64,000 nt of DNA from a bacterium (GTDB lineage Bacteria; Bdellovibrionota_B; Oligoflexia; Oligoflexales; RGVZ01), in contig JBAXLR010000001.1 of NCBI GenBank assembly GCA_037134655.1, positions 4,294 through 68,293 on the forward strand. The letters are read 5' to 3'. The notes below the pieces were generated by a model. The model worked only from the letters and a program-made list of their open reading frames with translations. It ran no database searches and had not been told where the DNA came from. How positions within the stretch are numbered: the first letter of the stretch is position 1; each line of letters begins with the position of its first letter. The translations under genes and the position numbers were made by a program. Positions 17,096 through 50,028 of the stretch are shown piece by piece.

Positions 17096-17099
17096 TCTC

Positions 17100-18191: not shown

Positions 18192-18192
18192 A

Positions 18193-33690: not shown

Positions 33691-36189
33691 TTAACTAATA
33701 CTCTCGTATAATCCACCGGGCCTTCTGACGTAAACGAGGCCATCATCTCGGTTAATTTGGATGAGATAAAGCCACTCGTTATCCACCAATTCGCGCACAA
33801 CCTGATGCTTTGCAATGATGCCTTCCATAGCCTCTCTTGGCGCCTCGATAAATACACTGAGTCTTAAGGGATCATGGACGAATTTTGATCCATCATGAAC
33901 CGACTGTAGTGGCAAACCAACTCGCAGGTCACCACCGTTGCCTTCCATGACTCCGCACTCGTTGACTACATTATGAAGAACTTTGTTACCTGCTCCATAA
34001 ACGTCAGGCGCCACAGTTGATGCAAAGTACTGCAAATTAATCCAGTTTGTCACCACCATCGGAGCCGTCATAATGAGCTCCAGTGTTGCGAACCCATCAT
34101 CCTTTACATAGTCATAGTCATGTAAGAATGACCGACTTCCTAAGTTCATATCTTTGCTACGAACTCTTGGCGCTACGATAAAACAGGCATTACCAGCCAA
34201 TGCCCACTCGGGACGAACCTCAGACCAATTAATCGCCCTGCGAGCGGCGGGATCAACCATAAATTGGGACCGGGCCACTTGCCGTTCAACTCTTGCTCTT
34301 GAGGCAGCCAAAGCCATGGACTGCTTGATGCGTTCTGCGGCTTTGCGGTGCGCAGTCGGAATCAATTCTTCATCCAGCAAATAAACGTCGTCTGTTACGG
34401 TTTCATGGACAGCTGCCACAAAGTGAGTTTCATTAGGCATTGAGATGCCGTGTTTAGGCAGACCCTCTCTTACCTTTTGATCGTTAAGAAGAGCTACTAA
34501 GACTCTTGCGTTTACGTCACCTGCATGTCCTCCACAAGCACCGCAATCAAGAGCCGAGCCAAATGCATTATTGGTGGTATGACTACCGTGACCAGCTACC
34601 ACCACCAAAGGCGCAAATCCAGAGCGAAGTCCCATATGCTTTAGAATACCCGCAGCTCTGCCAGAAAGGTCTTCCGTACTCAGAGAACCGCCGGCCATCA
34701 GTGAGCAGCTTTCCATATCTGGAGCATATTTTACGGAACTAAATCTTCCAGGAACCTGATGAGGACTTCGTTGGCCCAACATAGCTCTAAAAGTCCTTGT
34801 AAGCATCGGCTTCAGAGCTAGAATCCCAAGCATTTCCACGTAAGCAAACGATGACAATGGAGCTTTTCTAAGCGCCTTAAAATAAGACAACGTGAGCTTC
34901 CTCGTGACTTTACGCGTGACGTCCTTATGACCCTGATCTTTAGAAGTTTCTTTTACCGTCACAGCGGGAGTTAGGAGCACTGGGCAGCGATGCCCAACGT
35001 CTTTTTCGTCGATCTTTTTATAGTCCATGGCCACACCGAAGAAGCCTGCAAATCCGATCGTAGAAATACGTCCATCAGTTGCCTCGATATGCCTTCTGAT
35101 CATCTCAGAGCGAACATCAATACAAAAAGCGATTTGCGCGTCGGCGTTGACTACGGTCGCTTGATTTTGCAAGGGACCAGTATATAGATCGCTGGCAATG
35201 TGCTTCTGATAACTCTCCTCAAAAGCTGCCTGCCACACCAACTCGACCGGGGTTCGATGAGGAACTTCTGAAGAACGCTCCTCAAATTCAAGAACTTGCG
35301 TGCGCCAAGCGTCCATGGCTCCCGGATATTTTGTCTTAATTGACTCATAGACGGCCAACTCATAAACCAATCTCACAGCCAGGAGATCTGCTGCCTCTGC
35401 CCTTGACTCCATGGCATACCCGAGGCTTTTCTGCCACTCAACATACTTGAATTGACTCATCCATCCGAGGACACTGACAGCCATTCTTTCCAAAAGATGA
35501 CGCTGGCACTGAGAGTCAATAATCCCAAGTAGTTCAAAGACCTCGCCGATTACATCAGCTGCTTTTTTGGATTTAAGTTTTGCTGTAACAGCTGAGAGGC
35601 GGGTTAATCCTTGAACCTCTAAACTGCGATCATACTGACTTGCCTCGAGCCAACCCGTCAGAAAATCCTGATCACGCCAAGGAAAGTTGGCCAGAGCCTG
35701 ACGGCTATCAAGATAGGCCGCAGCATAGCGCGATGTTTCTGCAGATAGAACTTTGGCAGTGCTAAGTCCAAAGTTTTTATCGAGGTAATCACTGAGCGAT
35801 CTAAATTTTTGTCTAGCTAATCGCTCAGTCTGGCTAATCTTAAGAAACTCACCAATATGGCTTGGCACGCCAGGCCACTTTTCATGAAGCCTAGTCAATG
35901 AAGACTCGAGCGCAGCCTCTGAAATCTCGCCGTTAGCATAGCGCTCGAGATAGTACTCCACAGGCATGTAGAGACCTTTATGAATAACTTTGTAAAGATC
36001 ACCAATCACTTCCTCAAACTTCTGGCCACGACGAAACCAGAACGGGTTTACAGCTACTGTATTCTGTAGGGGCCAAGAAGGCGTTGAGACGGTTAGAGCC
36101 TCTTCTAGCGTTGCTTTTATTGGCTTCCATGTCTGTTGTTGCTTGCTTTTTGATTTCACTTTATTTTTTTCCATTTTGACGTCAAACAT
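33691..36189 (-). CDS. dabA: DUF2309-family protein, inorganic-carbon transporter subunit DabA
   Basis: 832 aa. ALDCGACGGHAG (Cys/His zinc-site region typical of DUF2309). Immediately downstream of a NuoL-like membrane subunit, which is the canonical DAB pairing. Confidence 0.8.
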   Translation of the reverse strand: MFDVKMEKNKVKSKSKQQQTWKPIKATLEEALTVSTPSWPLQNTVAVNPFWFRRGQKFEEVIGDLYKVIHKGLYMPVEYYLERYANGEISEAALESSLTRLHEKWPGVPSHIGEFLKISQTERLARQKFRSLSDYLDKNFGLSTAKVLSAETSRYAAAYLDSRQALANFPWRDQDFLTGWLEASQYDRSLEVQGLTRLSAVTAKLKSKKAADVIGEVFELLGIIDSQCQRHLLERMAVSVLGWMSQFKYVEWQKSLGYAMESRAEAADLLAVRLVYELAVYESIKTKYPGAMDAWRTQVLEFEERSSEVPHRTPVELVWQAAFEESYQKHIASDLYTGPLQNQATVVNADAQIAFCIDVRSEMIRRHIEATDGRISTIGFAGFFGVAMDYKKIDEKDVGHRCPVLLTPAVTVKETSKDQGHKDVTRKVTRKLTLSYFKALRKAPLSSFAYVEMLGILALKPMLTRTFRAMLGQRSPHQVPGRFSSVKYAPDMESCSLMAGGSLSTEDLSGRAAGILKHMGLRSGFAPLVVVAGHGSHTTNNAFGSALDCGACGGHAGDVNARVLVALLNDQKVREGLPKHGISMPNETHFVAAVHETVTDDVYLLDEELIPTAHRKAAERIKQSMALAASRARVERQVARSQFMVDPAARRAINWSEVRPEWALAGNACFIVAPRVRSKDMNLGSRSFLHDYDYVKDDGFATLELIMTAPMVVTNWINLQYFASTVAPDVYGAGNKVLHNVVNECGVMEGNGGDLRVGLPLQSVHDGSKFVHDPLRLSVFIEAPREAMEGIIAKHQVVRELVDNEWLYLIQINRDDGLVYVRRPGGLYESIS

Positions 36190-36222
36190 AATTGATACTC
36201 CTTCTTCTGCTGGCTAACTGAA

Positions 36223-37725
36223 TTAACTATTCACAGGCCACACGGCAGAAAGAACTTTCGAAGATTTTTGCGTAAAATAATTACCGTTCCACAAACTGAC
36301 ATAGAGTCGCTTAGAAAAAACGTCATTTGGGCGATAAAGCCTTCCCGCTAGATGGAAGCCGATTCCAAATATCACAAGTGAGATTGCGGACACGGCAAAT
36401 ATGGGTGAGCTAATTGTAACGACATCTAGTGTATCTGCTACGATGCTCTGCATACGCGTACCAACGTAGAATTCTATTCCTGTGTAAATAGCAACTGCTA
36501 AAAACATCATGCTTGCAATCGATGTGAAATATTTTAACCGGGAAAATTCACTTTTCGGCAGCACGACAACGCACTGCATCAGAGCAATAATCAATAATCC
36601 TGCATATGCAAAATATGAGAAGTGCGTACCATCTTGATAAACTACGCCGTATCCAAGCACCGTCAAACCAACGACGGTTGCGAGTGCGCTGTACCATGCA
36701 CCAAAAGGAGCCAACTGAAGAGACGACTTTTTGGACTCTCCGACCAGGTCCCCGGTGGATAAGAATGCGTAAGCTTTGTAAAAACTATGGGCGATGATGT
36801 GAAAAAGAGCAATTGAGTATGCGCCGAGACCACACGCAAAGATCATGAGTCCCATCTGACTAATCGTTGAATAAGCGAGTTTTTTCTTGATGTCATTTTG
36901 TGTGATCATCACAAGCGCACCATAGACGGCCGTAACGGCGCCGGCCAATGTTAGCAAAAGATGAGGCAGCTCAACGTGAGTTAGAAGTGGACTTAGACGG
37001 ATAATAAGAAATCCACCAGCATTGATTATGCCTGCATGCATGAGTGCAGATACAGGGGTAGGCGTTTCCATCGTCTCGGGAAGCCAAAAATGAAGTGGAA
37101 ACTGAGCCGATTTAGCGATCGCACCTAACGCCAGGAACACGCCGGCAGATGCAATCATTGATCCGTTGGCGGAGGCAAATGCCTGGTCTGCTGCAAGAGC
37201 GAAAATACGCTCGAATTCAAATGACTTAAAAACATTGTAGCAGATCACAAAGCCTGCCAATAAAAACAAATCTCCTAGGCGACTAATCAAAAACTTCTTA
37301 CGCGCAGCAGCCACGGCCAGCGGTCTTTGAGGATAAAACAACAAGAGGCGGTGTAGACCAATACTAGAAAGACACCAAGCAATGAAGAACATGATTAGGT
37401 TACTGGATAATACCAGTAAGGATACTGCTGATACAGTAAACAAAAGATTTTTGTAGAAGTATCCTTGACGCTCCTCGCCGTCTAAATAGCGTAGAGAGTA
37501 CTGACTAATAACAGCTCCAAGCACTGAGATCATCGCAAAAAGTACCGTCGACAATGCATCAACCTTGAAAGATAAATTCAAATCAAGGCCCGCTACCATA
37601 CCACTTAGTACTGTAAACGTACCCGGCCCATTGACAGCCTCCCAAGCAAACAAAGCCACAGCAAGAACACCCTGAGTGAGTAGCGTCCAGTGGACCAAAC
37701 GTATTTCTAATCCTTGTCGATGCAT
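36223..37725 (-). CDS. dabB: NuoL/MrpA-like proton-conducting membrane subunit DabB
   Basis: About 13 TM helices. WLPETMETPTPVSALMHAGIINAGGFL matches the NADH-quinone oxidoreductase chain 5 / Mrp antiporter core. Start set at the ATG at 37725 (GAGGAGAGGAAG RBS). Confidence 0.8.
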   Translation of the reverse strand: MHRQGLEIRLVHWTLLTQGVLAVALFAWEAVNGPGTFTVLSGMVAGLDLNLSFKVDALSTVLFAMISVLGAVISQYSLRYLDGEERQGYFYKNLLFTVSAVSLLVLSSNLIMFFIAWCLSSIGLHRLLLFYPQRPLAVAAARKKFLISRLGDLFLLAGFVICYNVFKSFEFERIFALAADQAFASANGSMIASAGVFLALGAIAKSAQFPLHFWLPETMETPTPVSALMHAGIINAGGFLIIRLSPLLTHVELPHLLLTLAGAVTAVYGALVMITQNDIKKKLAYSTISQMGLMIFACGLGAYSIALFHIIAHSFYKAYAFLSTGDLVGESKKSSLQLAPFGAWYSALATVVGLTVLGYGVVYQDGTHFSYFAYAGLLIIALMQCVVVLPKSEFSRLKYFTSIASMMFLAVAIYTGIEFYVGTRMQSIVADTLDVVTISSPIFAVSAISLVIFGIGFHLAGRLYRPNDVFSKRLYVSLWNGNYFTQKSSKVLSAVWPVNS

Positions 37726-37834
37726 TGCTTCCTCTCCTCTATTAGAAAAATCTGGAAAATCGATTTTTAAAAAGTAACTGTGGTCAAAAAAGGTTCGCTT
37801 TGTGTTCTGCACTAAGACTCTAGCAGCTGAATTC

Positions 37835-37860
37835 AATATACGCAATGTATATCGTATATT
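37835..37860. promoter_or_regulatory. inverted repeat AATATACG-N10-CGTATATT in the dabB / HTH divergent region (candidate operator)
   Basis: Perfect 8-bp arms at 37835-37842 and 37853-37860. Confidence 0.35.
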
Positions 37861-38253: not shown

Positions 38254-38766
38254 TCAGATGTAGGTGCCGAACGCTAAGCGAAATAGAATCCCAAAACCTG
38301 ATTCTTTCTTGGTGATTGCTCCAGAGACAACCCTTCGGTCAGTACCACCACCCAACCAATCAAATCCGAAGTAAGCGCGCTCATGCCGCCATCTATTACC
38401 AAGTGATGCGCTAATTCCGACATGGTTGGCGGGCGCCTCGCCAGCATAATCAATGCGGCGATAATAGGGCGACCAAGCAACATTAAAACTATTGCCGAGG
38501 AAGTGTCGGAGCTTAATTCCAGCCATATAACCGCGATCAGGAGGATATGAGAAAAAAGAATATGTTGGCGTTTCTCGGTACGCCTCAATGGCAAGGGAAG
38601 GATCGACTATATATCCTAAAGAAAAATTCCCGGTAAATAGACCCAACGCGGAAACCTCAATTCCAGCGCTGAATTTCTTCGAATCAACTTCAGCTGCTTG
38701 AGCGTACGATACATTTGCCAACGTCATGCTTAAAAAAATACAATTGACGAACAAACCAAGACGCAT
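38254..38766 (-). CDS. small outer-membrane beta-barrel protein
   Basis: Start set at the ATG at 38766 (GGAGGA RBS). Signal peptide ...VSYAQA, alternating aromatic beta-strands and terminal F-x-Y-I. The upstream part of track ORF 38254..39153 overlaps the next gene. Confidence 0.55.
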   Translation of the reverse strand: MRLGLFVNCIFLSMTLANVSYAQAAEVDSKKFSAGIEVSALGLFTGNFSLGYIVDPSLAIEAYRETPTYSFFSYPPDRGYMAGIKLRHFLGNSFNVAWSPYYRRIDYAGEAPANHVGISASLGNRWRHERAYFGFDWLGGGTDRRVVSGAITKKESGFGILFRLAFGTYI

Positions 38767-38797
38767 GATTTTCCTCCAATAGATTTTTTTAAAATAC

Positions 38798-39574
38798 TCA
38801 CTCAACATCCAGACGACACATATCGTCAATCCAAACTCCGCCTTTGGCTTGGCATTTTTTAGCTTTTTCCAGAAGTTGTTTGTTGTCCGCTTTACTGGAA
38901 GGTGGTTCGGATTCTGATCGGGCTGGTTTCGCCTGTAAATACCAACCAAAGCTAAAATAGATCGCAGCGTAGTTTCGACCTTTATCCCATAAATCAGCGG
39001 CCGTTTTTTGATCATTAGCCACGTCGTAGATCTCCCAGTACTTATAACTTTCTGCGGTTTGAATGCGTCCGAGACTTCTAATGCCAAAAGTGAAGTAGTA
39101 AAAATCATTTCCTTGCCACCCCACTTCAGGCCCAAGAAGCCAGCCTCGATCATAAAACTCTAGTTCTTGCTTTGGCTGAGCTTCCGTCTCACCGGTTTGT
39201 TGCAGTTCTAAGGAAGTGTAGTAAGTTCCGCCGATCATGCCGAAGTACAATCCTGAGTTATAAACGTGGCGATAAGCCATCTGAATTGAGGTTTTAGTTA
39301 GATTGATTTTACTAGTCTGCGACAAATTTTCGTTGCTTTCACCGGCTGACTCCAAATGAAAGTGAATCTGCTTATTAGACTCGTGCAGGTTATAGTCGTA
39401 GAAATAATAGCTACCGCCAACGGCACCTCCTGAAAAGCCGATACCAAGACCGTGCTGATCGATGCCTTCATTAAACTGAATTTGATTTGGAACGTGCTCT
39501 GCGAAAATCGTAGAACTGACTACAAACAAAAAAGCGCTGAGTGTGATCCTGGTTTCAAAACGAATGCCTCCCAT
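38798..39574 (-). CDS. outer-membrane beta-barrel-like protein with Cys-containing C-terminal tail
   Basis: Start at the ATG at 39574 (GGAGGG RBS). Signal peptide present. Gly/aromatic beta-strand pattern. Tail is KKCQAKGGVWIDDMCRLDVE. Confidence 0.5.
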   Translation of the reverse strand: MGGIRFETRITLSAFLFVVSSTIFAEHVPNQIQFNEGIDQHGLGIGFSGGAVGGSYYFYDYNLHESNKQIHFHLESAGESNENLSQTSKINLTKTSIQMAYRHVYNSGLYFGMIGGTYYTSLELQQTGETEAQPKQELEFYDRGWLLGPEVGWQGNDFYYFTFGIRSLGRIQTAESYKYWEIYDVANDQKTAADLWDKGRNYAAIYFSFGWYLQAKPARSESEPPSSKADNKQLLEKAKKCQAKGGVWIDDMCRLDVE

Positions 39575-39862
39575 TTCCAAAATCCCTCCGATGATGTTTT
39601 TGTCTGATCGGGTGCTGGGGGACATTTCTAAACGACATCGGGCGGAGGATCGGCCTACCGAGGACCACTTTTATTCAATAAAACCAGGATGTTATAAAAT
39701 ATCGCGCGGGCCTGCTATTGCATGATCATGTCGCTGAAAAAGTGATGAAAGTCATGTTTCACTGATCGGTAAAACTCCAAGCAACTGGTTTTGACGTACT
39801 GCTGAGAAAAAATACCATCGTAAATTTAGACATCGCTATGCCAAGCATAGCTCGACAGGGGA

Positions 39863-40017: not shown

Positions 40018-40140
40018 AGGCACGATGATTTGATTCAGCTTGATTGACCTGAGTGCTTCATCCGTGAGACAATTATGCAGGTTTTTCAGAGAAGTTTTAG
40101 GTGTTTAGATTGCTAATTTAATTTGGAGTGGAGTCAAAGT

Positions 40141-40902
40141 ATGACGGAACTAACAGCAGGGCAGTTTTCGCTCGTTTACAACATGTTTTCTTTAACAATT
40201 GCCAGTATGGGTGCAGCATTCATATTCTTCTTGGCATCACGGTCTAGTGTTGCCCCGAAATACCGCGGCGCACTAACGGTCTCGGCTTTGGTTGTAGCTA
40301 TCGCTTGCTATCACTACTTCCGTATCTTCAATAGCTGGAATGAAGCATTCACCCTAAGCGGCGCCGTCTATGCTCCGTCTGGCAAGCCTTTTAACGACGC
40401 TTACCGCTATGTTGACTGGCTTTTGACTGTTCCATTGCTACTTGTTGAGCTTGTTGCTGTATTGGCTCTACCTAAAAATCAACGCGAAGGTCTATTTGGC
40501 AAGCTAGCAATTGCTGCTTTCCTCATGATTGCACTTGGTTACCCAGGTGAAGTCGCAACTGACAATACGACACGCGCCATCTGGGGCACACTGTCCTCGA
40601 TCCCATTCGTTTACATCCTTATGATCCTTTGGGGCAAATTGGGTGCGGCGATCGAAAGCCAGCCAGGTGAAGCTAAAGTCTACTTGACCAACATTCGCCT
40701 CCTTCTTCTCTTGACCTGGGGCTTCTACCCAATCACCTACATGCTGCCTATGTTCGGCATTGACCCACAATCATCGGTTGTTGGTATTCAGGTTGGATAT
40801 GCTGTCGCTGACGTGCTTGCAAAAGCCTTCTACGGCGTGATGATCTACTGGATCGCCAGAGCTAAGTCTGAAAACGAAGGTTTTGCTGACGCAGCTCACT
40901 GA
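40141..40902 (+). CDS. xanthorhodopsin-clade light-driven proton-pumping rhodopsin
   Basis: RYVDWLLTVPLLLVEL gives the D-T-E motif (D92/T96/E103 from the ATG at 40141). YHYFR provides the His. ADVLAKAFYG provides D224/K228 (Schiff-base Lys). The protein resembles Salinibacter xanthorhodopsin over its whole length as I recall that sequence. GGAGTGGAG RBS. Confidence 0.92.
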   Translation: MTELTAGQFSLVYNMFSLTIASMGAAFIFFLASRSSVAPKYRGALTVSALVVAIACYHYFRIFNSWNEAFTLSGAVYAPSGKPFNDAYRYVDWLLTVPLLLVELVAVLALPKNQREGLFGKLAIAAFLMIALGYPGEVATDNTTRAIWGTLSSIPFVYILMILWGKLGAAIESQPGEAKVYLTNIRLLLLLTWGFYPITYMLPMFGIDPQSSVVGIQVGYAVADVLAKAFYGVMIYWIARAKSENEGFADAAH

Positions 40903-40935
40903 TCCACGTTCTGGTCGCTCTCGCGACCAAACAGT

Positions 40936-42954
40936 CTATTGATAGGCCGCCTCTGCTGAAAAGCGAGGCGGTTTTCTTTTAAGAAATCGTTTCATGGCCG
41001 GGGCGTGGGATGCCGTCAAGGCCCCAACACCCAGAAAAACAACCTGCCAAAGCTGGTTTTGATCACCGGAGCGGGCGTAGATCCAGGCTATGACACCAAT
41101 GCCAAGGATACTTGCTACCGTGTAGCGGAGGCTTTTACTTACGTATTGCTTGGCCGTCCAGTCATTGGCAGCCCTTTGCGCCAGAATAGAATCCCAGCCA
41201 TGCCAGAACGCGAAGAAACAAAAAAACCCAGGCAGTAGGGGTAGCGCCAGTATGGAAGCGGCCAGAACCAGTGTGGCGGGCAAACCAATGACCGCCCTTC
41301 CGAGGGCTTTGCGCTCGTATCGATCTAGATTGCCAGCTGCAAAAATCCCTGCAATAAAAACCAAAACACCGCACCAACGCGCAGCCTCTAAGGTTATTCC
41401 CGTGACAGAAGCCGAGTCTCTAAGGATTAACTGGATAATTGGGCTCGCCTCCTGCCAATGCATGAACACCCCAAACGTTGCGGCAAACAATCCCCACTGC
41501 CAGGCCAAAACGCGACTCCAAAGGGCATAGCCTGAATTTTTGATGGCACGAATCCAATTTGCTTCACCAAAATGATCAGCTGATTGAAACAGGAAAAAAC
41601 CTAGTGCCAGGGGCGGGTACAGCCACCACATGAGAACAAAAAGGATGATGGAGCCAAGGTACAGACCGTAAAATTCGCGGGGTTTACGAGCTACTGGATC
41701 AAGTAGATGATCGAGGCTGCCATGGCCGATTCCAGCAGTTAAAAGACCGATCATTGGAATAATCCATCCGGCGACTCCACCGACGGTCCAATGGAGTGCA
41801 ATGCTTGCAGATACTGCAAAGATAAATGGGTAAAAAACTACAAGACTGCGTAAGAATGGCCCCCAGGGAAGGCCAAAAAATATTTTAATTTCCTCCCCGA
41901 AGCTGGACCTCTCATCAAGGAACGCGAAAATTTTTGAGGGACTATTTGCAGAAAAAAGCACGAGAAAAATCTTGGAGATGAACTCCCCCTGGGTCCTGAT
42001 GATCCTTAGAAGAAGAGCATCATAAACCTGAAACCGAAAATGCCCATATGACGTATTTGCTGAACCAGTCAGATGTCGAAGATTTCTTTGAAAAGAGTAG
42101 CCTGTACTGGCTTTGACCATTCCAGCAGCACTGCCGATTGTCTCAATCACGGAATTGAGTTCTGGTGGGGGGAACTTTGACGCTGCTCCTAGAGTCATGG
42201 GAATAGCGCCTGACTCCACTTTAAGAATCCGAAAATTTGGCAAAGAAAGCTTTCGAGCAATATAATCTCGAAGGATCGACTCACACTCCTCGGTAGTGAT
42301 TCTTTTGGCCGCAAATACGGTGAATTCCACCAAGGCTCGACGTCTGTCAAAAGGCAGGATGTAAACAAAGCGAACCTCGCCCACCTGGTCTAGCCTAAAA
42401 TCCATTAAATCAACCAGGTGAGGATCAAAGTAGTCCTCTTCAGTTTCAAGCTCAAAGCCAAGAAAATACTGCAATAATTCTGGTTTTTGAACCGTCACAG
42501 AATTAAAGATATGCTTTGCCGCGAACGTCTGGCCAGATGTGGTCGTCACAAACGCTTTTTTCCTGGATGACCCCACGTCAGATTTCTCGTTGATCGTTGT
42601 GACAGAATCAACCACTCGATGAAATCGGCTATCATTCTCAAGGCGGTTTTTGATTTTTAAGAGCAGCCGTTCGCCGGGAATTCGCTCGTAGTAATAATCG
42701 CCAAAATCACGAACGACTTTTTGACCCTCAGTCGACGTTATTCGAAATCTTTCCCAGCGATTTTCGATGCAATCCGCGTAACGATGGGGCTTAGACGTTT
42801 TCAGCCGCCAAGAGGCAAAGGTCTTTGACGAAAGGGAATCCGGATCGGGATCGATGATGGCAACCCGCAGATCCCTCGACGGATCATCTGCGAGGATGTC
42901 GGCTTGCATGAGGCCAGCCAGGCCGCCGCCAACGATAATAACGTCAAAATCCAT
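40936..42954 (-). CDS. fusion protein: lycopene beta-cyclase (CrtY-type, N-terminal) + Brp/Blh beta-carotene 15,15'-dioxygenase (C-terminal)
   Basis: N-terminal half: DVIIVGGGLAG, RFVYILPF, GAIPMT, AGMVKASTGYSF, FLDERS. C-terminal ~300 aa is polytopic with GHGSLDH, SADHFGE, FWHGWDS and SHAP (the four-His Brp/Blh pattern). The ATG at 42954 overlaps the upstream stop as ATGA. Confidence 0.8.
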   Translation of the reverse strand: MDFDVIIVGGGLAGLMQADILADDPSRDLRVAIIDPDPDSLSSKTFASWRLKTSKPHRYADCIENRWERFRITSTEGQKVVRDFGDYYYERIPGERLLLKIKNRLENDSRFHRVVDSVTTINEKSDVGSSRKKAFVTTTSGQTFAAKHIFNSVTVQKPELLQYFLGFELETEEDYFDPHLVDLMDFRLDQVGEVRFVYILPFDRRRALVEFTVFAAKRITTEECESILRDYIARKLSLPNFRILKVESGAIPMTLGAASKFPPPELNSVIETIGSAAGMVKASTGYSFQRNLRHLTGSANTSYGHFRFQVYDALLLRIIRTQGEFISKIFLVLFSANSPSKIFAFLDERSSFGEEIKIFFGLPWGPFLRSLVVFYPFIFAVSASIALHWTVGGVAGWIIPMIGLLTAGIGHGSLDHLLDPVARKPREFYGLYLGSIILFVLMWWLYPPLALGFFLFQSADHFGEANWIRAIKNSGYALWSRVLAWQWGLFAATFGVFMHWQEASPIIQLILRDSASVTGITLEAARWCGVLVFIAGIFAAGNLDRYERKALGRAVIGLPATLVLAASILALPLLPGFFCFFAFWHGWDSILAQRAANDWTAKQYVSKSLRYTVASILGIGVIAWIYARSGDQNQLWQVVFLGVGALTASHAPAMKRFLKRKPPRFSAEAAYQ
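40947..40980 (+). terminator. rho-independent terminator of the rhodopsin gene
   Basis: ccgcctc (40947-40953) pairs with gaggcgg (40965-40971), then ttttctttt. It lies inside the 3' end of the convergent crtY-blh ORF. Confidence 0.7.
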
Positions 42955-44111
42955 CAAATCGGCGACCACTTGATCACCCGACCCTTCCATTCATAAGAGC
43001 CGCGCAAGCTCGTTCTGAGAGACTTGTAAGCAGCTATATTGAATAGTAACAAACTGAGGGGATGTAAAAGCACATCACGAAGTGGCATCTTAAATAATTT
43101 TGCCGTCAACATTCGGCTTACTAAAACCAACCCTAGAGAAATCAGCGCAAATTGCGGGCGAAAAAAATAGCCCCACAATGGAAACATAAAAACAAGATTC
43201 ACCAGAATGACCACACACCCAAAAACTAGTGGCGTGCCTCCCCCAATCATGACCAAATTTTTTGAGAAGCCGGCTAGCGTAGCCCGCCAATCAGAATACA
43301 TGGCCACACTGATATCAGTTGCTGCCAAAACAGGCTGCACACCACGACCTGTCACCCGCTGAATCTGACGAGCTAGTGCAACGTCTTCAAGTGGTGTCAC
43401 ACCAAGCCTTTGGTGCCCTCCACTAGCATAATAATCAGGCTTGAATAACGCAATCCACTGTCCGTTAGCCATTTGCATTGACTTGAAAGGCAGACGCCAC
43501 GTGCAAAATAGCGGTAATGACATCAGCAAAGGAAGATGCATGATCCAAGGAATCAACAGACGCTCTAGTAATCCTTCACACGACTGTGCTGGTAAAGCTG
43601 TTAGACCAGCCATTTTTTCTCTCGCGCCAGGCTTCATCATCAAATTGACGGTATTCCGAATAGCCGTGGGTGATGGCCTAACATCTGCATCACAAAAGAT
43701 CAAAATCTCACCCTTTGCCACTGCAGCAAGCTGGGCACAAGCATGGGCTTTGCCTGAAAGTTGGGTCGCTTCCGACCATGGAATTCCCGCTACGATACGC
43801 ACGGGGAATGGAGCATCTGACATTAGATCTGTAGCGATTTTTGCTGAATGATCTCTAGATCCGTCATCTAATATAATGACTTCAAGGGGCTGATAGGTCG
43901 AATTCAGTAAAGCTGGCAGAAGATGTCGTAGGTTATTCGCCTCGTCACGCACAGGCACGAGAAAACTTACCAGTGGTTTTTCGGTGGTGGTAACCTCAGA
44001 TTGTCCCATCTTTGCAGCCAACGCTGCATTAAGGATGACCATTAAAGTCGTGACACAACACGCCAGTAAACAAAACCAACAGACCACATCAATCAGCAAC
44101 GCTGCATTCAT
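42954..44111 (-). CDS. family-2 glycosyltransferase (carotenoid glycosyltransferase CruC-like by context)
   Basis: FLVPVRDE, ILDDGSRD, FCDADV (GT2 DxD) and C-terminal TM helices. ATGA overlaps on both sides within the carotenoid operon. Confidence 0.65.
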   Translation of the reverse strand: MNAALLIDVVCWFCLLACCVTTLMVILNAALAAKMGQSEVTTTEKPLVSFLVPVRDEANNLRHLLPALLNSTYQPLEVIILDDGSRDHSAKIATDLMSDAPFPVRIVAGIPWSEATQLSGKAHACAQLAAVAKGEILIFCDADVRPSPTAIRNTVNLMMKPGAREKMAGLTALPAQSCEGLLERLLIPWIMHLPLLMSLPLFCTWRLPFKSMQMANGQWIALFKPDYYASGGHQRLGVTPLEDVALARQIQRVTGRGVQPVLAATDISVAMYSDWRATLAGFSKNLVMIGGGTPLVFGCVVILVNLVFMFPLWGYFFRPQFALISLGLVLVSRMLTAKLFKMPLRDVLLHPLSLLLFNIAAYKSLRTSLRGSYEWKGRVIKWSPI

Positions 44112-44782
44112 CAGCCACCACCTGCTAATAAAGCTTGGGGTGCGCTGATTGAGGCTAGATCCAAAAGCCTCGTAACTTCGGCTTCCAAAGTCTTGTGATC
44201 GATATTTTTACTGAGACTATCAATCGGCTGACCCGCATAAATGAAAACGGTTGGTTTCTCCTGGGTCATAGGCTCAATGTGAAGCCCTAGTGGCACATAC
44301 TGAACGCGACCAACTATCTTTGCCAAAGTTTCAATGCCACGACGAAACCCAAGCGGTCTTTGACGCAGAGGCGAGATTTCACCTTGGGGGAAATAGGTCA
44401 GAGTCCGGTATGGATTTGCAGCCGCCAGATCACGAAACTGGATGAAGGCTCTACGCACGCTTACTGGATTACCAGGTTCCAACCCAAAACATCCGATTTT
44501 ACGTAAAATGGGAAACTTCTTTAGCTCGCTTTCGAGCATCAAAGAATAGATACCCGATCCAGGACGAAGCCGATTTTGGACTTCAAAGCAAAAAAATCCG
44601 TCCCACCAGCTGATGTGATTAGGAACCAATATGACAGGTAACTTCGGATCAAGCTGACCCAGTGCGGCGTCCAAATCAAAATGGATGGATGCAAAAGCTC
44701 TACGGTACTTCCACTGTAAGTACCTATCCCAAAACCACCTTACATTGTCATTATGCCTGGGTGACACGGGTTCGAAATCCAA
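44111..44782 (-). CDS. PlsC-family acyltransferase (carotenoid glycoside acyltransferase CruD-like by context)
   Basis: NHISWWDG is the HxxxxD acyltransferase motif. 223 aa, within the carotenoid operon. Confidence 0.6.
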   Translation of the reverse strand: MDFEPVSPRHNDNVRWFWDRYLQWKYRRAFASIHFDLDAALGQLDPKLPVILVPNHISWWDGFFCFEVQNRLRPGSGIYSLMLESELKKFPILRKIGCFGLEPGNPVSVRRAFIQFRDLAAANPYRTLTYFPQGEISPLRQRPLGFRRGIETLAKIVGRVQYVPLGLHIEPMTQEKPTVFIYAGQPIDSLSKNIDHKTLEAEVTRLLDLASISAPQALLAGGG

Positions 44783-45671
44783 GCGGTAATGTGCCTCGGC
44801 TCAAGCCAAATATATAGAGCACTAGCAGTGTCAATGCCGTGAGAATCACGGGCGACCAGGCTGCACCGGCTATGGATAACCCAACCGGAAGGAACAAGTT
44901 TAGGAAGTAAAATTTTATCGGCCATGAACGCTCGAAGCGATGTCCATAGTTACCGAGCCCTAGTGCTTCAAAACTGAGGAATATTAAAAATCCAGTGAGT
45001 AACCAACCTAGAAGATTTCTGACCGCTACGCCGAGGAAAAAGACTCCAGATTCTTCCCAGATCCAATATGGAGTCAACTGGCTCATGGCTGGTTCAAGTG
45101 TGAAATCCCAAGCAATGAGCAATAAAGACGCTACTGCAATTCGCCCTAAAGAAAATCGCAATTGATCGAGCCTTCCTTGAAAGACCCTCCGAGGTTTGCG
45201 TCCAATAATCTGAGTTGCAAGGAGATGACAGCAAAGGGTCATGCAAAACCAGCTGATCGGAATCAGCACTGGGACTTTATCGCCAAGCTGCCAACCGAGA
45301 AGGCTCGTATACGAGTATTTGCCAAAAGGTATACCGTAACTGGTACCACCAAATTCCATAAAAAAACTGATCAAAAACGCTGAGAAAAAGTAGGCGAGCC
45401 AGCGCCAGCCCAAAACCTTATGGGCAGCCTGTATGCACAGCCAAAAACAAAGAAGAATCTGCAATCTCGCAAAAAGCGGGTATGATATGGCATAGATTGG
45501 CGGTGACCAAGGAAAACGCGCAAACAACTCTGGATGCAGCGTAAACGTGGCGTATCCAAAGATTGAAATCGCATTGATGAAAAGCAAAGCCCACATTGGA
45601 GAAAAGAATAGCACATGAGTCCCTTGGAGCAAGGACATTTGGGGGCCACCAGAATCCCAGTCAGGGATCAT
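44751..45671 (-). CDS. membrane carotenoid biosynthesis protein (CruF-like carotenoid 1,2-hydratase family)
   Basis: Polytopic. GIPFGKYSYT and AWDFTLEPAM...YWIWEE resemble the conserved PF04240-type motifs as I remember them. The true start may be an internal Met. Confidence 0.55.
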   Translation of the reverse strand: MIPDWDSGGPQMSLLQGTHVLFFSPMWALLFINAISIFGYATFTLHPELFARFPWSPPIYAISYPLFARLQILLCFWLCIQAAHKVLGWRWLAYFFSAFLISFFMEFGGTSYGIPFGKYSYTSLLGWQLGDKVPVLIPISWFCMTLCCHLLATQIIGRKPRRVFQGRLDQLRFSLGRIAVASLLLIAWDFTLEPAMSQLTPYWIWEESGVFFLGVAVRNLLGWLLTGFLIFLSFEALGLGNYGHRFERSWPIKFYFLNLFLPVGLSIAGAAWSPVILTALTLLVLYIFGLSRGTLPLGFRTRVTQA

Positions 45672-46376
45672 CTAGCACCCATTTTGGCCTTCTGTGTCAT
45701 TGGCGCCTGGGCATTTAGCCTCTGGTACGCGTTCTTCCATCTGCGTACCGGGATTTTCCCCGACTCTTTGGCCAGTATCGGCATGATGCTTTGGATGCAG
45801 TTTCTTAATTGTGGACTTTTTATTGTCACTCACGACGCCTGCCATGGTACTGCCTGGCCTGGGCATCCCAGACTGAATCGCTGGTTAGGAAAGACCACCG
45901 CGAGGCTCTATGCTGCCTTCAATTTTGATCGGCTTGTGCCAAAGCATCTCGCCCATCACGTCCATGTCGCCACTAATCTAGACCCGGACTTTAACGATCA
46001 CACCAAAAAGGGTGAAGGATTTTTCGCCTGGGGATGGCGATTTTTCCGCCAATATCTGAGCTTTAGCCAAATTATTATCATGATGGGGGTCGCCCAAATT
46101 TTCTTTCATATTCTAAAAATACCCGAAAGAAACGTGATCCAGTTTTGGGTTGTGCCGGCTATTATGAGCAGCATTCAGCTCTTTTACTTCGGAACGTGGT
46201 TACCGCACCGAGTCATCCCTGGAAAAGACTTCGCTGATAAGCATCATGCCAGAGATTCTGGACTGCCTTGGATATTATCACTCGTCTCATGCTGGCATTT
46301 CGGCTACCATCATGTGCATCACCTTAAACCGGGCGTGCCATGGTTTCGGCTACCCTCCCAAAGGAGAACATCATGA
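45615..46376 (+). CDS. crtW: beta-carotene 4-ketolase
   Basis: Three His boxes HDACHG, HLAHHVH and HHVHHL. FGTWLPHR and PWFRLP are typical of CrtW. Confidence 0.88.
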   Translation: MSPLEQGHLGATRIPVRDHLAPILAFCVIGAWAFSLWYAFFHLRTGIFPDSLASIGMMLWMQFLNCGLFIVTHDACHGTAWPGHPRLNRWLGKTTARLYAAFNFDRLVPKHLAHHVHVATNLDPDFNDHTKKGEGFFAWGWRFFRQYLSFSQIIIMMGVAQIFFHILKIPERNVIQFWVVPAIMSSIQLFYFGTWLPHRVIPGKDFADKHHARDSGLPWILSLVSCWHFGYHHVHHLKPGVPWFRLPSQRRTS

Positions 46377-46579
46377 AAGTTCAATCAATCCTAATGTGGA
46401 CACTTGGCGGAGCGTTATTTGGAGTTGCCTTCGGAGCGATCGCTTCCATCTTTCAAGGCGGTCCAGACGTGATGCGAGGCATACAAGAATCATGGTGGTG
46501 GTTTGCGGGAGCTGGATTTCTGATCTCAACGATCGGTAATCGCAGGTCACAAGTTGGACGTTCGCAACAGGCCGGCTGA
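46373..46579 (+). CDS. small two-helix membrane protein co-transcribed with crtW
   Basis: 68 aa. AAGGAG RBS. The ATG at 46373 overlaps the crtW stop (ATGA). Two hydrophobic segments. Confidence 0.4.
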   Translation: MKVQSILMWTLGGALFGVAFGAIASIFQGGPDVMRGIQESWWWFAGAGFLISTIGNRRSQVGRSQQAG

Positions 46580-47446
46580 TCCCAATGCTTTGATCGCAAA
46601 AACCAGAAAAATCCCCTGAGCTACGGCTATTATTTTTCCCGCACTTGAAACAATTGTGCGCCTGCGAAATGCCAACTCAGGATTAGATTTAGCAGCCCTC
46701 AATAGTTTATGACCAATGCGCTGATAAACCTTTCCAGCGACCGCGATGGCAAATGAAACGCGCCAGGGCAACCAATAAATACCTTGAAATCCGTGCTCAT
46801 ACAAATCGTCGGCGCGACTCAGTAGCCTACTCACTGCTCCGGAAGCGAGCTCTGGGTTAGTCGATAACTCTTCATGTGTCGTTTCTGGTAAAAAATCCTT
46901 GGGTATATAAACTCGGCCAAGACGCGCATCCGTTTGGATATCCCTCGCGATATTAGTGAGCTGCATGGCAGAACCGAGGGACATGGCATGTGGACTTGCC
47001 ATTTTTGGCTCTGCTCCCAGAAGTGGGCACATCATGAGTCCCACCACACCAGCGACCCTAAAGCAATACTGCTCAAGCTCTTGCAAGCTCTTGTAGCTGT
47101 GGCCTTCCACATCCATACGCATACCGGCAATAAACTCAGACCTCTGCCAATCGTTCACCCAAGCGGGCCCGGCGAGGCTAGCGCCCGCTGATCGTCGATC
47201 TTCCATCTTAGTGAGCATCACCCTTGCCGACTGGGCATCGGGTGCGTCGTCGATGGCATCATCACAGCGTCTGCACCACTGATAGAGCATCAGAACTTTT
47301 TCCCGGCAATTCACGGGTAAGAAAAGTGACGCTAGGGAAAAACTCTTTGATCCCTGTCTGATAACCTCAGCAGGGGATGCATTAAAATCAATTGGTGGTG
47401 ACTGGATCATGTAGGACCCGTGGTTTGCGGTCTCGAATGGGACCAT
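46547..47446 (-). CDS. crtB: phytoene synthase
   Basis: SKSFSLASLF, YQWCRRCDDAIDD, YCFRVAGVVG and NIARDIQTDARLGRVYIP. An alternative start exists at 47410. Confidence 0.9.
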   Translation of the reverse strand: MVPFETANHGSYMIQSPPIDFNASPAEVIRQGSKSFSLASLFLPVNCREKVLMLYQWCRRCDDAIDDAPDAQSARVMLTKMEDRRSAGASLAGPAWVNDWQRSEFIAGMRMDVEGHSYKSLQELEQYCFRVAGVVGLMMCPLLGAEPKMASPHAMSLGSAMQLTNIARDIQTDARLGRVYIPKDFLPETTHEELSTNPELASGAVSRLLSRADDLYEHGFQGIYWLPWRVSFAIAVAGKVYQRIGHKLLRAAKSNPELAFRRRTIVSSAGKIIAVAQGIFLVFAIKALGSAGLLRTSNL

Positions 47447-48950
47447 AAGCTTTTAAGTCTTCAAGCACAAGCGTTGCCGTGGCCTTGGCTGAGTTCACAA
47501 CACCGGGCACACCAGCGCCTGGATGTGTCCCGGCCCCCGTAAAGTACATTCCAGCCACACGGTCATCACGGTTATGAGTACGAAAGAACGCACTTTGCCA
47601 AAGAACCGGCTCACTTGAAAATGCCGATCCTAGATGGGAGTTTAACTCCACCTTGAAATCCATCGGCGTGAAAATTTTCTGGGTTACGATGTGCTGACGC
47701 AAACCCGGCGCATAGTGTTGCTCGATGTAATTTAAGATGCGGTCAGCGTAGGCTGGGCCTTCTTTTTTCCAGTCAACATTGAGATTTCCCAGATGTGGAA
47801 CGGGCGATAGAACGTAAAATGCCTCACACCCTTCCGGCGCCATCCCAGGATCAGTCCGTGTTGGAGCATGCAAATAAAGGGAAAAATCATCTGGGATTTT
47901 TTTAGCCTTAGTAAAGATCTGACTTAGAAGCCCGCGGTAAGACTTTCCAAAAAGAATATTATGGTGTGCAAGCTCCGGATACTGCCTGTTTGTGCCAAAA
48001 TAAATTAAAAATAACGACATGCTCTGCGAGTGACCAAGGACTTTCTTACGCCCTGGTGCGGCCTCTGGAACATTGCGCAAAAGATGACTATAGCTGTGCA
48101 CTACATCGGCGTTTGAAACGACCACATCACAAGGCCAAACACCCTCTGCAGTCTTGATCCCGCTGACTTGGCCCTCAGCTGTAAGAATCTCTTCAACCGA
48201 AGACGACAAGCGAACCTCACCACCCATCTCCTCGAAGAGTCTGACTAAGGCCTTGACCAAAGCACCAGTCCCCCCACGCGGGAAGAAGACACCCCAATTT
48301 CGTTCAAGATAGTGAATCAATGTGTAAATCGACGATGTTTTAAATGGATTACCACCAACCAAAAGCGTGTGGAAGCTGAACGCTTGTCGCAGTTGTGGAT
48401 CCTTAATAAATCGCGCGACTGTTTTGAAGACGGAGCGATGGGCGCTGAGCTTCACCAACTGTGGTGCCACACGAATCATACTCCACCAGTTTAGAAACGG
48501 CACGTGGGCCAACTTGGTATAGCCTTCGTCAAAAACTTCTTTTGAATACTTTAAGAACTTGGAGTAACCGTCAACGTCCTGTGGTGATTTTTTTTGGATC
48601 TGATCGAATGTACTGACAGGATCATTTGAGTAATCAAAGGAAAAACCATTTTCCCAGAATAGACGGTAGAATGGCGTGACTGGCATCATCTCCACGTAGT
48701 CTTCCATTTTCTTACCAGCACAGTCAAAAAGCTCACGCAGACAGTCTGGGGCCGTAATAACGGTCGGTCCTGCATCAAAGATGAAACCCTTGTCGCGGTA
48801 AACGTAGGCTCTGCCGCCAGGCTGATCACGCTTTTCAAATATAACGACCTTGTTTCCCGCCGCTTGCAAGCGAATGGCGGCGGCAAGACCTCCAAAACCA
48901 CTACCAATCACAGCTATTCGAGTGGACTCTTTTGATTTACGCATATGCAC
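47388..48950 (-). CDS. crtI: phytoene desaturase
   Basis: IAVIGSGFGGLAAAIRL, EKRDQPGGRAY and C-terminal FTGAGTHPGAGVPGV. Confidence 0.92.
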   Translation of the reverse strand: MHMRKSKESTRIAVIGSGFGGLAAAIRLQAAGNKVVIFEKRDQPGGRAYVYRDKGFIFDAGPTVITAPDCLRELFDCAGKKMEDYVEMMPVTPFYRLFWENGFSFDYSNDPVSTFDQIQKKSPQDVDGYSKFLKYSKEVFDEGYTKLAHVPFLNWWSMIRVAPQLVKLSAHRSVFKTVARFIKDPQLRQAFSFHTLLVGGNPFKTSSIYTLIHYLERNWGVFFPRGGTGALVKALVRLFEEMGGEVRLSSSVEEILTAEGQVSGIKTAEGVWPCDVVVSNADVVHSYSHLLRNVPEAAPGRKKVLGHSQSMSLFLIYFGTNRQYPELAHHNILFGKSYRGLLSQIFTKAKKIPDDFSLYLHAPTRTDPGMAPEGCEAFYVLSPVPHLGNLNVDWKKEGPAYADRILNYIEQHYAPGLRQHIVTQKIFTPMDFKVELNSHLGSAFSSEPVLWQSAFFRTHNRDDRVAGMYFTGAGTHPGAGVPGVVNSAKATATLVLEDLKAYGPIRDRKPRVLHDPVTTN

Positions 48951-50028
48951 GCATCACTTTCTGCGCAAGCTCTCGCAAGGAAGACTGCGCCAACTTGTGC
49001 GCGTCAGTTTTAACAAGACTATTGATCTCATCCATACAGTTTTCAAATTCAACTACAGCCAGTTCAGTGGCTCTTTTAACTATTTGGTCGACAAGTGCTC
49101 CAGTTGTGCAAAGGCCGCCCATCATACTTTGGAATTTTGCGAATTCCTCGGAGCTAAGCTCTCGCGCAGCCACAGCCCAAACCCAAGAAGGCCTGAGTAG
49201 GGGGCGAAGCGCTTGATCGTCTTTAATTTTTGCAAAGACTTCTCCAATATCGTTAAACATCTGTAACGCGACGCCAAATCTTTGGCCAAGTGTGGTTAAT
49301 TGACGACGACGAGTCGGTTCTGCATTTCCAACAATTGCACCCAGCTCTGAGCACATGGCGGTAAGCTCACCCGTCTTTAATTCGATTGCAGCAACGGAAA
49401 TTTCGAAGCCTTCAGCTTGCGAAGTTTTGGTCATATCATGCCCCAAATCAAGGGCTTGGCCCTGATGGGCTCGCATCATGGTCTTATGAAACAGACGGTA
49501 GATCTCAAGCTCCATAGCTGGCTCAAGAGTCTGCTGCCGCAGTAAATCGGTTGGCCAAAAATAAAGCCAGTTGGCCGCATTGATGGTACGCGGAACGCCA
49601 ATTTGCATATGAAGAGCTGCTTTGCCGCGACGCATGTCGTCAGCATCTTGAATATCATCGATCATGAGTGAACCGGCATGGAGTGCCTCCACCACGCAAG
49701 CCATGCAGTCGAGCAGCTTTTCTTGATCGGCGTTTGGTGATACGCCGTGGCTGGTAGCAAGACTAAAGCCGATTCGGACCAGTTGCGCCCGAACCTGCTT
49801 GGAATCACGGCTGACAAATTCACGAACAGGCACGAGTAAGGCACTATCAATGCCGGGCGTGTCGACGCCCGCGCGAGCCGAGGTTGGTAATAGCTCCGCC
49901 AACAGGGGCAACTGGGCGCTCCCAATGACGTTTTTTTGTAAATTTGCTGGATTGTCAATCACACGTAATAGCCTACTGGATGAGACCAAATGGGTCAAGG
50001 AATGTGAGTAAAAAATAGCACCACCCAC
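48937..50028 (-). CDS. crtE: polyprenyl (geranylgeranyl) diphosphate synthase
   Basis: HAGSLMIDDIQDADDMRRG (first DDxxD) and INAANWLYF, like type-III GGPPS. The second motif is degenerate (FNDIGE). GTG start. Overlaps the crtI start. Confidence 0.75.
   Translation of the reverse strand: MGGAIFYSHSLTHLVSSSRLLRVIDNPANLQKNVIGSAQLPLLAELLPTSARAGVDTPGIDSALLVPVREFVSRDSKQVRAQLVRIGFSLATSHGVSPNADQEKLLDCMACVVEALHAGSLMIDDIQDADDMRRGKAALHMQIGVPRTINAANWLYFWPTDLLRQQTLEPAMELEIYRLFHKTMMRAHQGQALDLGHDMTKTSQAEGFEISVAAIELKTGELTAMCSELGAIVGNAEPTRRRQLTTLGQRFGVALQMFNDIGEVFAKIKDDQALRPLLRPSWVWAVAARELSSEEFAKFQSMMGGLCTTGALVDQIVKRATELAVVEFENCMDEINSLVKTDAHKLAQSSLRELAQKVMRAYA

Follow-up and report, generated by a model that had tools for sequence, protein, structure and literature searches.

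A single open reading frame joining predicted FAD-dependent lycopene cyclase and Brp/Blh dioxygenase domains beside a xanthorhodopsin-type gene in a member of the Bdellovibrionota

Rhodopsin-based phototrophy needs retinal, and in the well-known proteorhodopsin operon PR-crtEIBY-blh the last two steps of its synthesis, lycopene cyclization and cleavage of the product, fall to separate CrtY and Blh proteins. In the 64 kb stretch of DNA analysed here (the window), the same enzyme families occur in the same reaction order, again adjacent to a rhodopsin gene, but as a single polypeptide without a linker. The locus raises the question of whether this is a genuine gene, whether both halves are likely to be enzymes, and what their union could serve.

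The crtY::blh open reading frame lies on the minus strand (40936..42990, stop codon at 40936-40938) and encodes 684 aa without an internal stop. An earlier sequence-only reading of the window had also described one frame, placing its upper bound at 42954; the single frame stands, but that position is the internal Met13 (MDFDVIIVGGG), and the frame extends to 42990. There are three candidate starts: ATG at 42990, giving a 37-nt overlap with the upstream family-2 glycosyltransferase (GT2) gene; GTG at 42969, where many homologues open with 'MV'; and ATG at 42954, giving a 1-nt overlap (TGATG) with the GT2 stop. The FAD motif is downstream of every candidate start, so the domain call is unaffected by the choice. 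The FAD-type lycopene cyclase comes first, followed by one extra transmembrane helix and then a nine-helix Brp/Blh core. By Pfam, the protein has no CrtI or CrtB domain; both are encoded by separate genes. The GC content of the Blh half is slightly above that of the cyclase half.

The cyclase domain (aa 14-383; 41842..42951, minus strand) matches PF05834 (Lycopene_cycl) over aa 16-307 (E 3e-51; 175.1 bits against a cutoff of 23.4), and alignment with stand-alone cyclases continues past the end of this match to about aa 383. The FAD/dinucleotide-binding motif (DVIIVGGGLAG...IIDP) is present, and none of its residues G21, G23 and D47 varies among 44 fusions of 25-93% identity. Invariant in the same set is E222, in the motif 'ALVEFT'; with F208, Y210, L212 and P213 it makes up an 'FxYxLP...xxxE' block in which each residue keeps a conservation of at least 90% when the set is widened to stand-alone cyclases. 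Mutagenesis of CrtY has led to the glutamate of this block being proposed as catalytic. All 31 positions conserved at 90% or more with stand-alone cyclases included are retained in the cyclase half of the fusion. The domain nevertheless scores below the NCBIfam cutoffs for both carotene-cycl TIGR01790 (103.5 versus 209.5) and the CrtY equivalog TIGR01789 (55 versus 215.2), and is thus a divergent member of the family. Its product specificity, monocyclic or bicyclic, cannot be read from the family name. The AF2 model gives a beta-rich Rossmann/PHBH fold, for which the top PDB matches are geranylgeranyl reductases.

The C-terminal half contains a predicted Brp/Blh beta-carotene 15,15'-dioxygenase core (aa 408-676; 40963..41769, minus strand), with a PF15461 (Pfam BCD) match at aa 415-663 (E 1.6e-27; 97.2 bits, cutoff 28) and a score of 105.1 bits for NCBIfam TIGR03753 blh, above the cutoff of 95.25. 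Four histidines, H423, H473, H597 and H662, are invariant in the 44 fusions; they are predicted to form the iron site, each near the cytoplasmic end of a helix. In Blh 66A03, a 9-TM protein, a plane of His21/78/188/256 has been proposed as the iron site (10.64898/2026.08.06.743266), and we take the histidine spacing of 50/124/65 in the fusion to match the 57/110/68 of 66A03. The sequence-only reading had assigned the two halves to a CrtY-type FAD lycopene cyclase and a polytopic Brp/Blh domain with a four-His pattern, catalysing consecutive steps. These profile matches, much stronger than chance would give, agree with it, and every motif that it named is found (DVIIVGGGLAG, FVYILPF, GAIPMT, STGYSF, GHGSLDH, SADHFGE, FWHGWDS and SHAP).

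Hydropathy and the positive-inside rule predict ten hydrophobic segments, with all K/R-rich loops on the N-terminal, cytoplasmic side. The first, TM0 (aa ~384-407; 41770..41841, minus strand), is supported by junction alignments and hydropathy and by an AF2 helix at 388-402; hydropathy and AF2 both place nine helices after it. TM0 connects the cyclase tail ('LPWGPFLRSL') directly to Blh helix 1, without a flexible linker, and is less conserved than either domain. Stand-alone cyclases stop approximately 10 aa past 'LPxxPF', exactly where TM0 starts. This tenth, N-terminal helix is absent from the 9-TM 66A03 (10.64898/2026.08.06.743266). The idea that TM0 is an adapter created by the fusion was rejected, since it is already present in an unfused Blh (locus L024), and the stand-alone Blh proteins P0125 and P0126 also have an N-terminal helix ahead of the His-bearing helix.

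The AF2 model of the whole protein has a pLDDT of 92.9 and a pTM of 0.91, and its helices comprise TM0 and nine others. The pTM suggests that the two domains may be rigidly docked. The PDB searches matched no CrtY-type cyclase and no Blh, and according to a recent preprint no Blh crystal structure exists (10.64898/2026.08.06.743266). For both families, the fusion could supply a model predicted with high confidence and a compact subject for cryo-EM.

Convergent with the fusion gene is a xanthorhodopsin-type proton pump gene (40123..40902, plus strand), identified by PF01036, PDB matching and a motif check, and encoding a DTE motif and the retinal-binding Lys234. Its best PDB match is 3DDL, Salinibacter xanthorhodopsin (E 9e-89); Kin4B8 gives E 4e-83. 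Gly155 occupies the antenna-fenestration position of XR-G156. The 33-nt gap between the two genes holds a stem-loop (40908..40932, no strand assigned) with a 7-bp GC-rich core (RNA fold -14.1 kcal/mol, z -2.87). This is possibly a shared terminator of both genes, although it lacks a T-run and was not picked up by a consensus terminator scan.

Upstream, also on the minus strand, the fusion is immediately preceded and overlapped by the GT2 gene, CruC/CruG-like by profile matches and conserved synteny (42954..44111). Then follow a putative acyltransferase (44111..44782), CruD-like by position, with conserved synteny and a marginal Pfam score (22.9 bits, cutoff 23), and a CruF-like carotenoid 1',2'-hydratase (44751..45671; PF04240, E 3e-43), for which NF045693 CruF is the top NCBIfam match yet is below cutoff. 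A CrtW-like beta-ring 4-ketolase gene (45615..46376; PF00487) lies on the plus strand, its top match NF045690 CrtW scoring 222 bits against a cutoff of 350. The minus strand continues with crtB for phytoene synthase (46547..47446; profile matches), crtI for phytoene desaturase (47388..48950; TIGR02734, 659 bits, cutoff 238), the sole CrtI-family gene in the cluster, and crtE for a polyprenyl (GGPP) synthase (48937..50028; profile matches). No second PF05834 cyclase is encoded in the 64 kb window among ORFs of at least 150 aa, a scan that shorter CrtYc/d genes would escape. The fusion therefore most likely feeds the antenna branch as well.

In each of the 17 related loci whose flank could be read (L001-L010, L013, L014, L016-L019 and L025), the fusion has a rhodopsin gene no more than about 150 bp away. 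In the window, L001-L009, L016 and L017, the fusion shares one operon with cruF, acyltransferase and GT2 genes. In L010, L013, L018, L019 and L025, cruF, glycosyltransferase, acyltransferase and crtW are absent nearby and the rhodopsins are PR-like. L018 and L019 contain only rhodopsin, fusion, crtB, crtI and crtE, which argues that the fusion supplies both cyclization and cleavage there.

The crtY-blh architecture is found in hundreds of database proteins, among them a large Bacteroidota clade (591 matches), and full-length fusions form at least 54 clusters at 50% identity; a word-index search with the Blh half alone gave eight matches. We conclude that the fusion is genuine and that uncultured freshwater bacteria commonly carry it. 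As the cyclase half diverges, so does the Blh half (identities of, for example, 94/92, 63/65 and 43/38%), a pattern that indicates purifying selection on both. In a neighbour-joining tree of cyclase domains, the fusions are separate from 132 stand-alone cyclases, except for four apparently stand-alone sequences among the fusions, two of which look like fragments. Several independent fusion events are not supported by this tree, which has no bootstrap and is indicative only.

Unfused relatives are of two kinds. In L024, crtY (398 aa) and blh (314 aa, TM0 included) are distinct genes with a 4-nt ATGA overlap, and a rhodopsin gene follows. In L020-L022, a stand-alone Blh occupies the slot of the fusion in an antenna operon and the cyclase half has been lost; this secondary loss shows that the fusion is dispensable. 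Stand-alone Blh proteins within the fusion clade were also considered as gene-call fragments, but P0136 and P0142 are, by their genomic context, real genes, directly overlapping GT2.

From these features we infer, and hold to be probable as a whole, that the protein is a bifunctional retinal synthase embedded in the membrane. Its FAD cyclase domain would lie in the cytoplasm, with TM0 as its connection to a nine-helix Brp/Blh iron dioxygenase. The cyclase would add beta-ionone rings to lycopene supplied by the adjacent CrtE, CrtB and CrtI, and the Blh core would cut the 15,15' bond of the cyclized product, giving retinal for the neighbouring rhodopsin. The most likely origin is read-through of an overlapping crtY-blh pair in which Blh already bore an N-in TM0. 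The gain may have been 1:1 co-expression, together with a cyclase tethered to the cytoplasmic face of Blh, where the four histidines are predicted to lie; a strongly hydrophobic intermediate would then have only a short way to travel between the two. Gamma-carotene probably also leaves this cyclase domain for the use of CruF, the glycosyltransferase, the acyltransferase and CrtW; these enzymes would make from it a salinixanthin-like antenna carotenoid for the xanthorhodopsin.

A bolder form of this model, which we think rather unlikely, would have the cyclase rigidly docked over the substrate cavity of Blh: lycopene would go in and retinal come out, with no build-up of free beta-carotene. The choice between release of gamma-carotene and a second cyclization with cleavage would then set the 1:1 ratio of retinal to antenna that xanthorhodopsin requires, and the fusion would act as the branch-point controller of a two-chromophore photosystem.

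Four other readings were weighed against the bifunctional synthase. It is unlikely that the cyclase half makes gamma-carotene only, with the Blh half then giving retinal and an acyclic 'gamma-retinal' and free beta-carotene never being formed. Blh is known to cleave gamma-carotene to these two products, both in vitro and in E. coli (10.64898/2026.08.06.743266), gamma-carotene is required by the antenna pathway, and the cyclase domain is divergent and under the CrtY equivalog cutoff. Such a route would, however, waste half of each substrate, and the minimal L018 and L019 clusters resemble the canonical crtEIBY-blh retinal operon, which proceeds via beta-carotene; the sequence itself holds nothing that separates monocyclases from bicyclases.

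The sequence-only reading had offered a different rationale, that the genes fused because a channel isolates beta-carotene and retinal from the monocyclic antenna branch. The operon with cruF, acyltransferase and GT2 genes beside a rhodopsin with the antenna glycine fits this, since it implies that both chromophores are needed together, and the pTM of the model would be compatible with rigid docking. The rationale is nevertheless not supported, on three counts, and appears quite unlikely: five loci have the fusion beside PR-like rhodopsins without antenna genes, the antenna operon of L020-L022 has an unfused Blh, and neither cluster nor window offers a second cyclase for separate gamma-carotene.

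It is highly improbable that the cyclase half is dead and only caps Blh in a carotenoid-binding or regulatory role, cyclization being performed by an enzyme encoded elsewhere. Some relatives without the cyclase domain do retain the operon, and 64 kb is all that is visible of this genome; but the FAD motif and all family-conserved residues, including E222, are invariant across 25-93% identity, the cyclase half evolves no faster than the Blh half, and L018 and L019 have no other cyclase near crtEIB and rhodopsin.

Finally, the window is probably metagenome-assembled, as its nearest relatives are all metagenome-assembled genomes (MAGs), and the small GC difference between the halves might be expected of two genes joined by a frameshift or chimeric contig, but such an artefact is hardly credible and is rejected on the unbroken frame in independent loci. 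Ten Oligoflexales (Bdellovibrionota) loci, in MAGs from different lakes, carry the frame uninterrupted, their proteins being 47-93% identical to that of the window; tblastn matches in L001-L010 are essentially full-length, the best segment spanning at least residues 1-670 or 19-681. The junction DNA (41650-42050) aligns without gaps to independent lake assemblies, at 93.5% identity for L001 and 71-74% for L002 and L003. Both domains are present in 145 retrieved proteins, and the 591 Bacteroidota matches are additional to these.

A described counterpart of the bifunctional synthase is a four-domain CrtI-CrtB-CrtYc/d-Blh protein of Thecamonas trahens, which likewise puts a lycopene cyclase directly ahead of the Blh domain (PMC10016063). 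That protein is eukaryotic, with a small membrane CrtYc/d cyclase and with CrtI and CrtB in the same chain; the fusion ORF has none of these, its cyclase being of the unrelated FAD-dependent PF05834 family. Fungal CrtYB, thraustochytrid CrtIBY and the fusion-type CrtYc-CrtYd cyclases cited in PMC2889829 also merge consecutive or cooperating carotenoid enzymes, but in other domain pairs, none of which combines a flavoprotein cyclase with a cleavage dioxygenase. A full-text literature search brought up no report of a CrtY-Blh fusion in bacteria; PMC9418006 and PMC2889829 share some vocabulary with the subject by coincidence. The sequence-only reading, which named no characterized example, had allowed that the architecture might prove common and already characterized; common it is, while a characterization was not found in that literature. 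We regard the fusion as an uncharacterized variant of known enzymes and an unsurprising sort of gene fusion.

Its context, as distinct from the fusion itself, resembles the xanthorhodopsin/salinixanthin system of Salinibacter ruber and the Bdellovibrionota xanthorhodopsin Kin4B8: the window rhodopsin is similar and keeps the fenestration glycine. The predicted CruF-, glycosyltransferase-, acyltransferase- and ketolase-like products would fit a salinixanthin-like carotenoid, although no CrtD-type 3',4'-desaturase was seen in the window cluster, and ketolation here would fall to a CrtW-like enzyme, CrtO being the one used in the related Rhodothermus pathway. The cluster suggests that freshwater Bdellovibrionota equip xanthorhodopsin with a keto-carotenoid glycoside antenna of their own making.

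Should both halves be active, one gene would provide the route from lycopene to retinal, and a rhodopsin photosystem could be as small as five genes (rhodopsin, crtE, crtI, crtB and the fusion). In retinoid engineering, artificial Crt/Blh fusions have already been built, and a natural rigid fusion could serve as a useful template. Genome surveys with separate scores for crtY and blh, or with one name per protein, may miscount such genomes; database names for the fusion protein vary between 'lycopene beta-cyclase' and 'Brp/Blh'.

In the window, positions 40936..42990 of the minus strand hold a single, uninterrupted 684-aa ORF in which a CrtY-type lycopene cyclase (PF05834) is joined to a Brp/Blh beta-carotene 15,15'-dioxygenase (PF15461). 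The sequence-only reading, which placed this fusion at 40936-42954, had rightly described one unbroken ORF, but its upper bound is the internal Met13 and the ORF reaches 42990. There are three candidate starts on the minus strand: an ATG at 42990, with a 37-nt overlap with the upstream glycosyltransferase gene; a GTG at 42969, which lines up with the 'MV' start of many homologues; and an ATG at 42954, which overlaps the stop codon of the glycosyltransferase gene in the sequence TGATG. Since the FAD motif lies downstream of all three, the fusion call is independent of the start chosen. Pfam places the Lycopene_cycl domain at aa 16-307 (E 3e-51) and the BCD domain at aa 415-663 (E 1.6e-27). The NCBIfam model TIGR03753 (Brp/Blh) scores 105.1, above its curated cutoff of 95.25, and the earlier assignment of the C-terminal half to Brp/Blh is upheld. 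The fusion falls below the cutoffs of both the carotene-cyclase and the CrtY models of NCBIfam; the cyclase half is therefore a divergent member of its family.

In a scan with one genome per species, the full-length protein recurs at ten loci (L001-L010), where its identity is 47-93%. Most of these carry the label of Oligoflexales (phylum Bdellovibrionota) MAGs, and the lakes represented include Mendota, Zurich and Rimov. The tblastn match is essentially full-length at all ten, with residues 1-670 or 19-681 as the minimum span of the best segment, and DNA at the domain junction aligns without gaps to L001 (93.5%) and L002/L003 (71-74%). This rules out an assembly join or frameshift, against which a check had been advised. 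An exhaustive search of representatives gave 3256 relatives; both domains are present in 59 of the best 150 clusters (50% identity), with 54 full length (646-703 aa). With a distant member as query, 591 matches reached E <= 1e-20. Both Pfam domains are present in every one of the best 120, and the few named ones are 'Bacteroidota bacterium'. Public databases contain hundreds of these proteins, each annotated for just one of its two functions. Full-text literature searches turned up no account of a bacterial CrtY-Blh fusion, the nearest precedent being the eukaryotic Thecamonas CrtI-CrtB-CrtYc/d-Blh protein (PMC10016063), whose cyclase is of an unrelated type. The architecture, built from two well-known enzymes, is real and widespread but apparently uncharacterized. 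It is only moderately surprising, since carotenoid enzyme fusions are familiar to specialists.

The fusion gene is the last in a minus-strand operon of overlapping genes, following cruF-like, acyltransferase and GT2 genes. Upstream of the operon are a CrtW-like ketolase gene, on the opposite strand, and crtB, crtI and crtE. The cruF-like and crtW-like genes (44751-46376) are divergent, and taken as longest ORFs they share 57 nt at the 5' ends; translation probably begins further inside each, which would leave a short promoter region in common. The fusion and rhodopsin genes are convergent, and the 33-nt gap between them contains a GC-rich stem-loop (40908-40932; -14.1 kcal/mol, z -2.87) with no T-tract, which may be a bidirectional terminator. 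The rhodopsin has Salinibacter XR as its top PDB match (3DDL, E 9e-89), contains a DTE motif and keeps Gly at the XR-G156 antenna position, features that identify it as a xanthorhodopsin. Kin4B8, a characterized xanthorhodopsin of an uncultured Bdellovibrionota bacterium, is likewise a close match. The whole cluster arrangement is kept in L001-L009, L016 and L017. Rhodopsin (40123-40902) identity to L001-L009 is 84-99% (aa), far above the values for adjacent genes there (fusion 58-93%, GT2 52-92%, CrtE 52-64%), a sign of very strong constraint or of recent opsin gene transfer. Region 40123-50028 of this freshwater Oligoflexales-type genome holds a full two-chromophore gene set (xanthorhodopsin with antenna Gly, CruF-like, acyltransferase, GT2, CrtW-like and crtE/I/B), which would fit a self-made salinixanthin-like keto-carotenoid glycoside ester. 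The set lacks a CrtD-type 3',4'-desaturase; the second-best NCBIfam match of its single CrtI is 'bifunctional phytoene desaturase/3,4-desaturase' (324 bits, below cutoff).

A rhodopsin gene directly adjoins the fusion at all 17 related loci with a readable flank, and the partners span two rhodopsin families. Loci with cruF, acyltransferase, GT2 and crtW genes have a xanthorhodopsin 74-99% identical to that of the window, whereas loci without them have a PR-like DTE pump (29-34%). L018 and L019 contain only rhodopsin, fusion, crtB, crtI and crtE, a canonical retinal operon but with one gene in place of crtY and blh. No other indirect evidence argues as strongly that both halves are functional. 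Across the family, identity drops in parallel in the cyclase and Blh halves, a pattern that indicates selection on each. The best-supported reading is that the fusion would be a bifunctional enzyme, the N-terminal half cyclizing lycopene and the Blh half cleaving the product to retinal for the adjoining pump. Fusing the two would ensure their equal expression and position the cyclase at the cytoplasmic side of Blh; direct channelling between the halves is possible. No second PF05834 cyclase is present among window ORFs of at least 150 aa, and as the only cyclase visible at this locus the fusion most likely supplies gamma-carotene, the monocyclic intermediate, as well. Blh has been reported to cleave gamma-carotene (10.64898/2026.08.06.743266), which leaves a monocyclase-plus-cleavage route as a minor alternative. 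The earlier idea that the fusion serves to keep retinal synthesis apart from the monocyclic antenna pathway is not supported by the distribution: the fusion occurs without antenna genes and antenna genes without the fusion.

Stand-alone cyclases (377-400 aa) end about 10 residues past 'LPxxPF'. In the fusion, an extra hydrophobic helix, TM0 (aa about 384-407), directly follows the cyclase tail and leads to the first His-bearing Blh helix, with no low-complexity linker at the junction. Hydropathy predicts ten membrane segments; all K/R-rich loops and the C-terminus share a side with the N-terminal flavoprotein, and the four His lie near cytoplasmic helix ends. These residues (H423, H473, H597 and H662), the Brp/Blh pattern of the sequence-only reading, are invariant in 44 fusions of 25-93% identity, as are G21, G23, D47 and E222 of the cyclase half. 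Their spacing (50/124/65 residues) matches the pattern of Blh 66A03 (57/110/68), for which a 2026 preprint gives a prediction of nine TM helices and of an iron plane made up of His21/78/188/256 (10.64898/2026.08.06.743266). A nine-helix core with its C-terminus inside has its N-terminus outside, so that a cytoplasmic domain can be attached only through a tenth helix. TM0 also occurs outside the fusion, in P0125 and P0126, which are stand-alone Blh proteins, and in the unfused Blh of L024. An AlphaFold2 model (66-sequence alignment) has pLDDT 92.9 and pTM 0.91, the latter implying that the modelled halves hold a defined relative orientation. Foldseek against the PDB matched the flavoprotein half alone, to geranylgeranyl reductases and PHBH-fold enzymes; a PDB sequence search found no related structure for either half.

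In L024 (1612-4577), separate crtY (398 aa) and blh (314 aa) genes share a 4-nt ATGA overlap and are followed by a rhodopsin gene. This is plausibly the pre-fusion state, which one small change would be enough to fuse. A neighbour-joining tree of cyclase domains, without support values, sets the fusions apart from 132 stand-alone cyclases and suggests a single old fusion event. Three loci with the same antenna operon, L020 (3955-4860), L021 (5377-6288) and L022 (1257-2168), hold in the fusion's slot a Blh alone (301-303 aa), its gene overlapping that for GT2. The N-terminus of these proteins retains a cyclase-tail remnant, 'F.PL..R.PF..AV', and TM0, and in the Blh tree they nest among fusions. 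Some lineages have therefore lost the cyclase half secondarily, apparently by clean deletion of the domain.

On a 2.87-Mb Bacteroidota-type contig (L025, 8001-16529), the strand that carries the fusion and rhodopsin genes has, downstream of them, three photolyase/cryptochrome-family genes and one for a flavin reductase, a grouping that looks like a light-response island. Beside the fusion-bearing carotenoid cluster of L017, genes for an RPE65-family carotenoid oxygenase, a lipocalin and a short-chain dehydrogenase (16747-19480) look like a second apocarotenoid module. In the window, a DabA gene (E 4e-233) adjoins one for a NuoL/Mrp-type proton-translocating subunit (33691-37845). The two form a DAB-type inorganic-carbon uptake pair and lie within a few kb of the rhodopsin cluster. 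Just upstream of rhodopsin are two overlapping minus-strand ORFs (38254-39625), alternative candidates for a real gene. That of 275 aa (38798-39625) has no match in Pfam or NCBIfam; that of 299 aa (38254-39153) is 55% identical over its C-terminal 192 residues to a translated stretch of L001.
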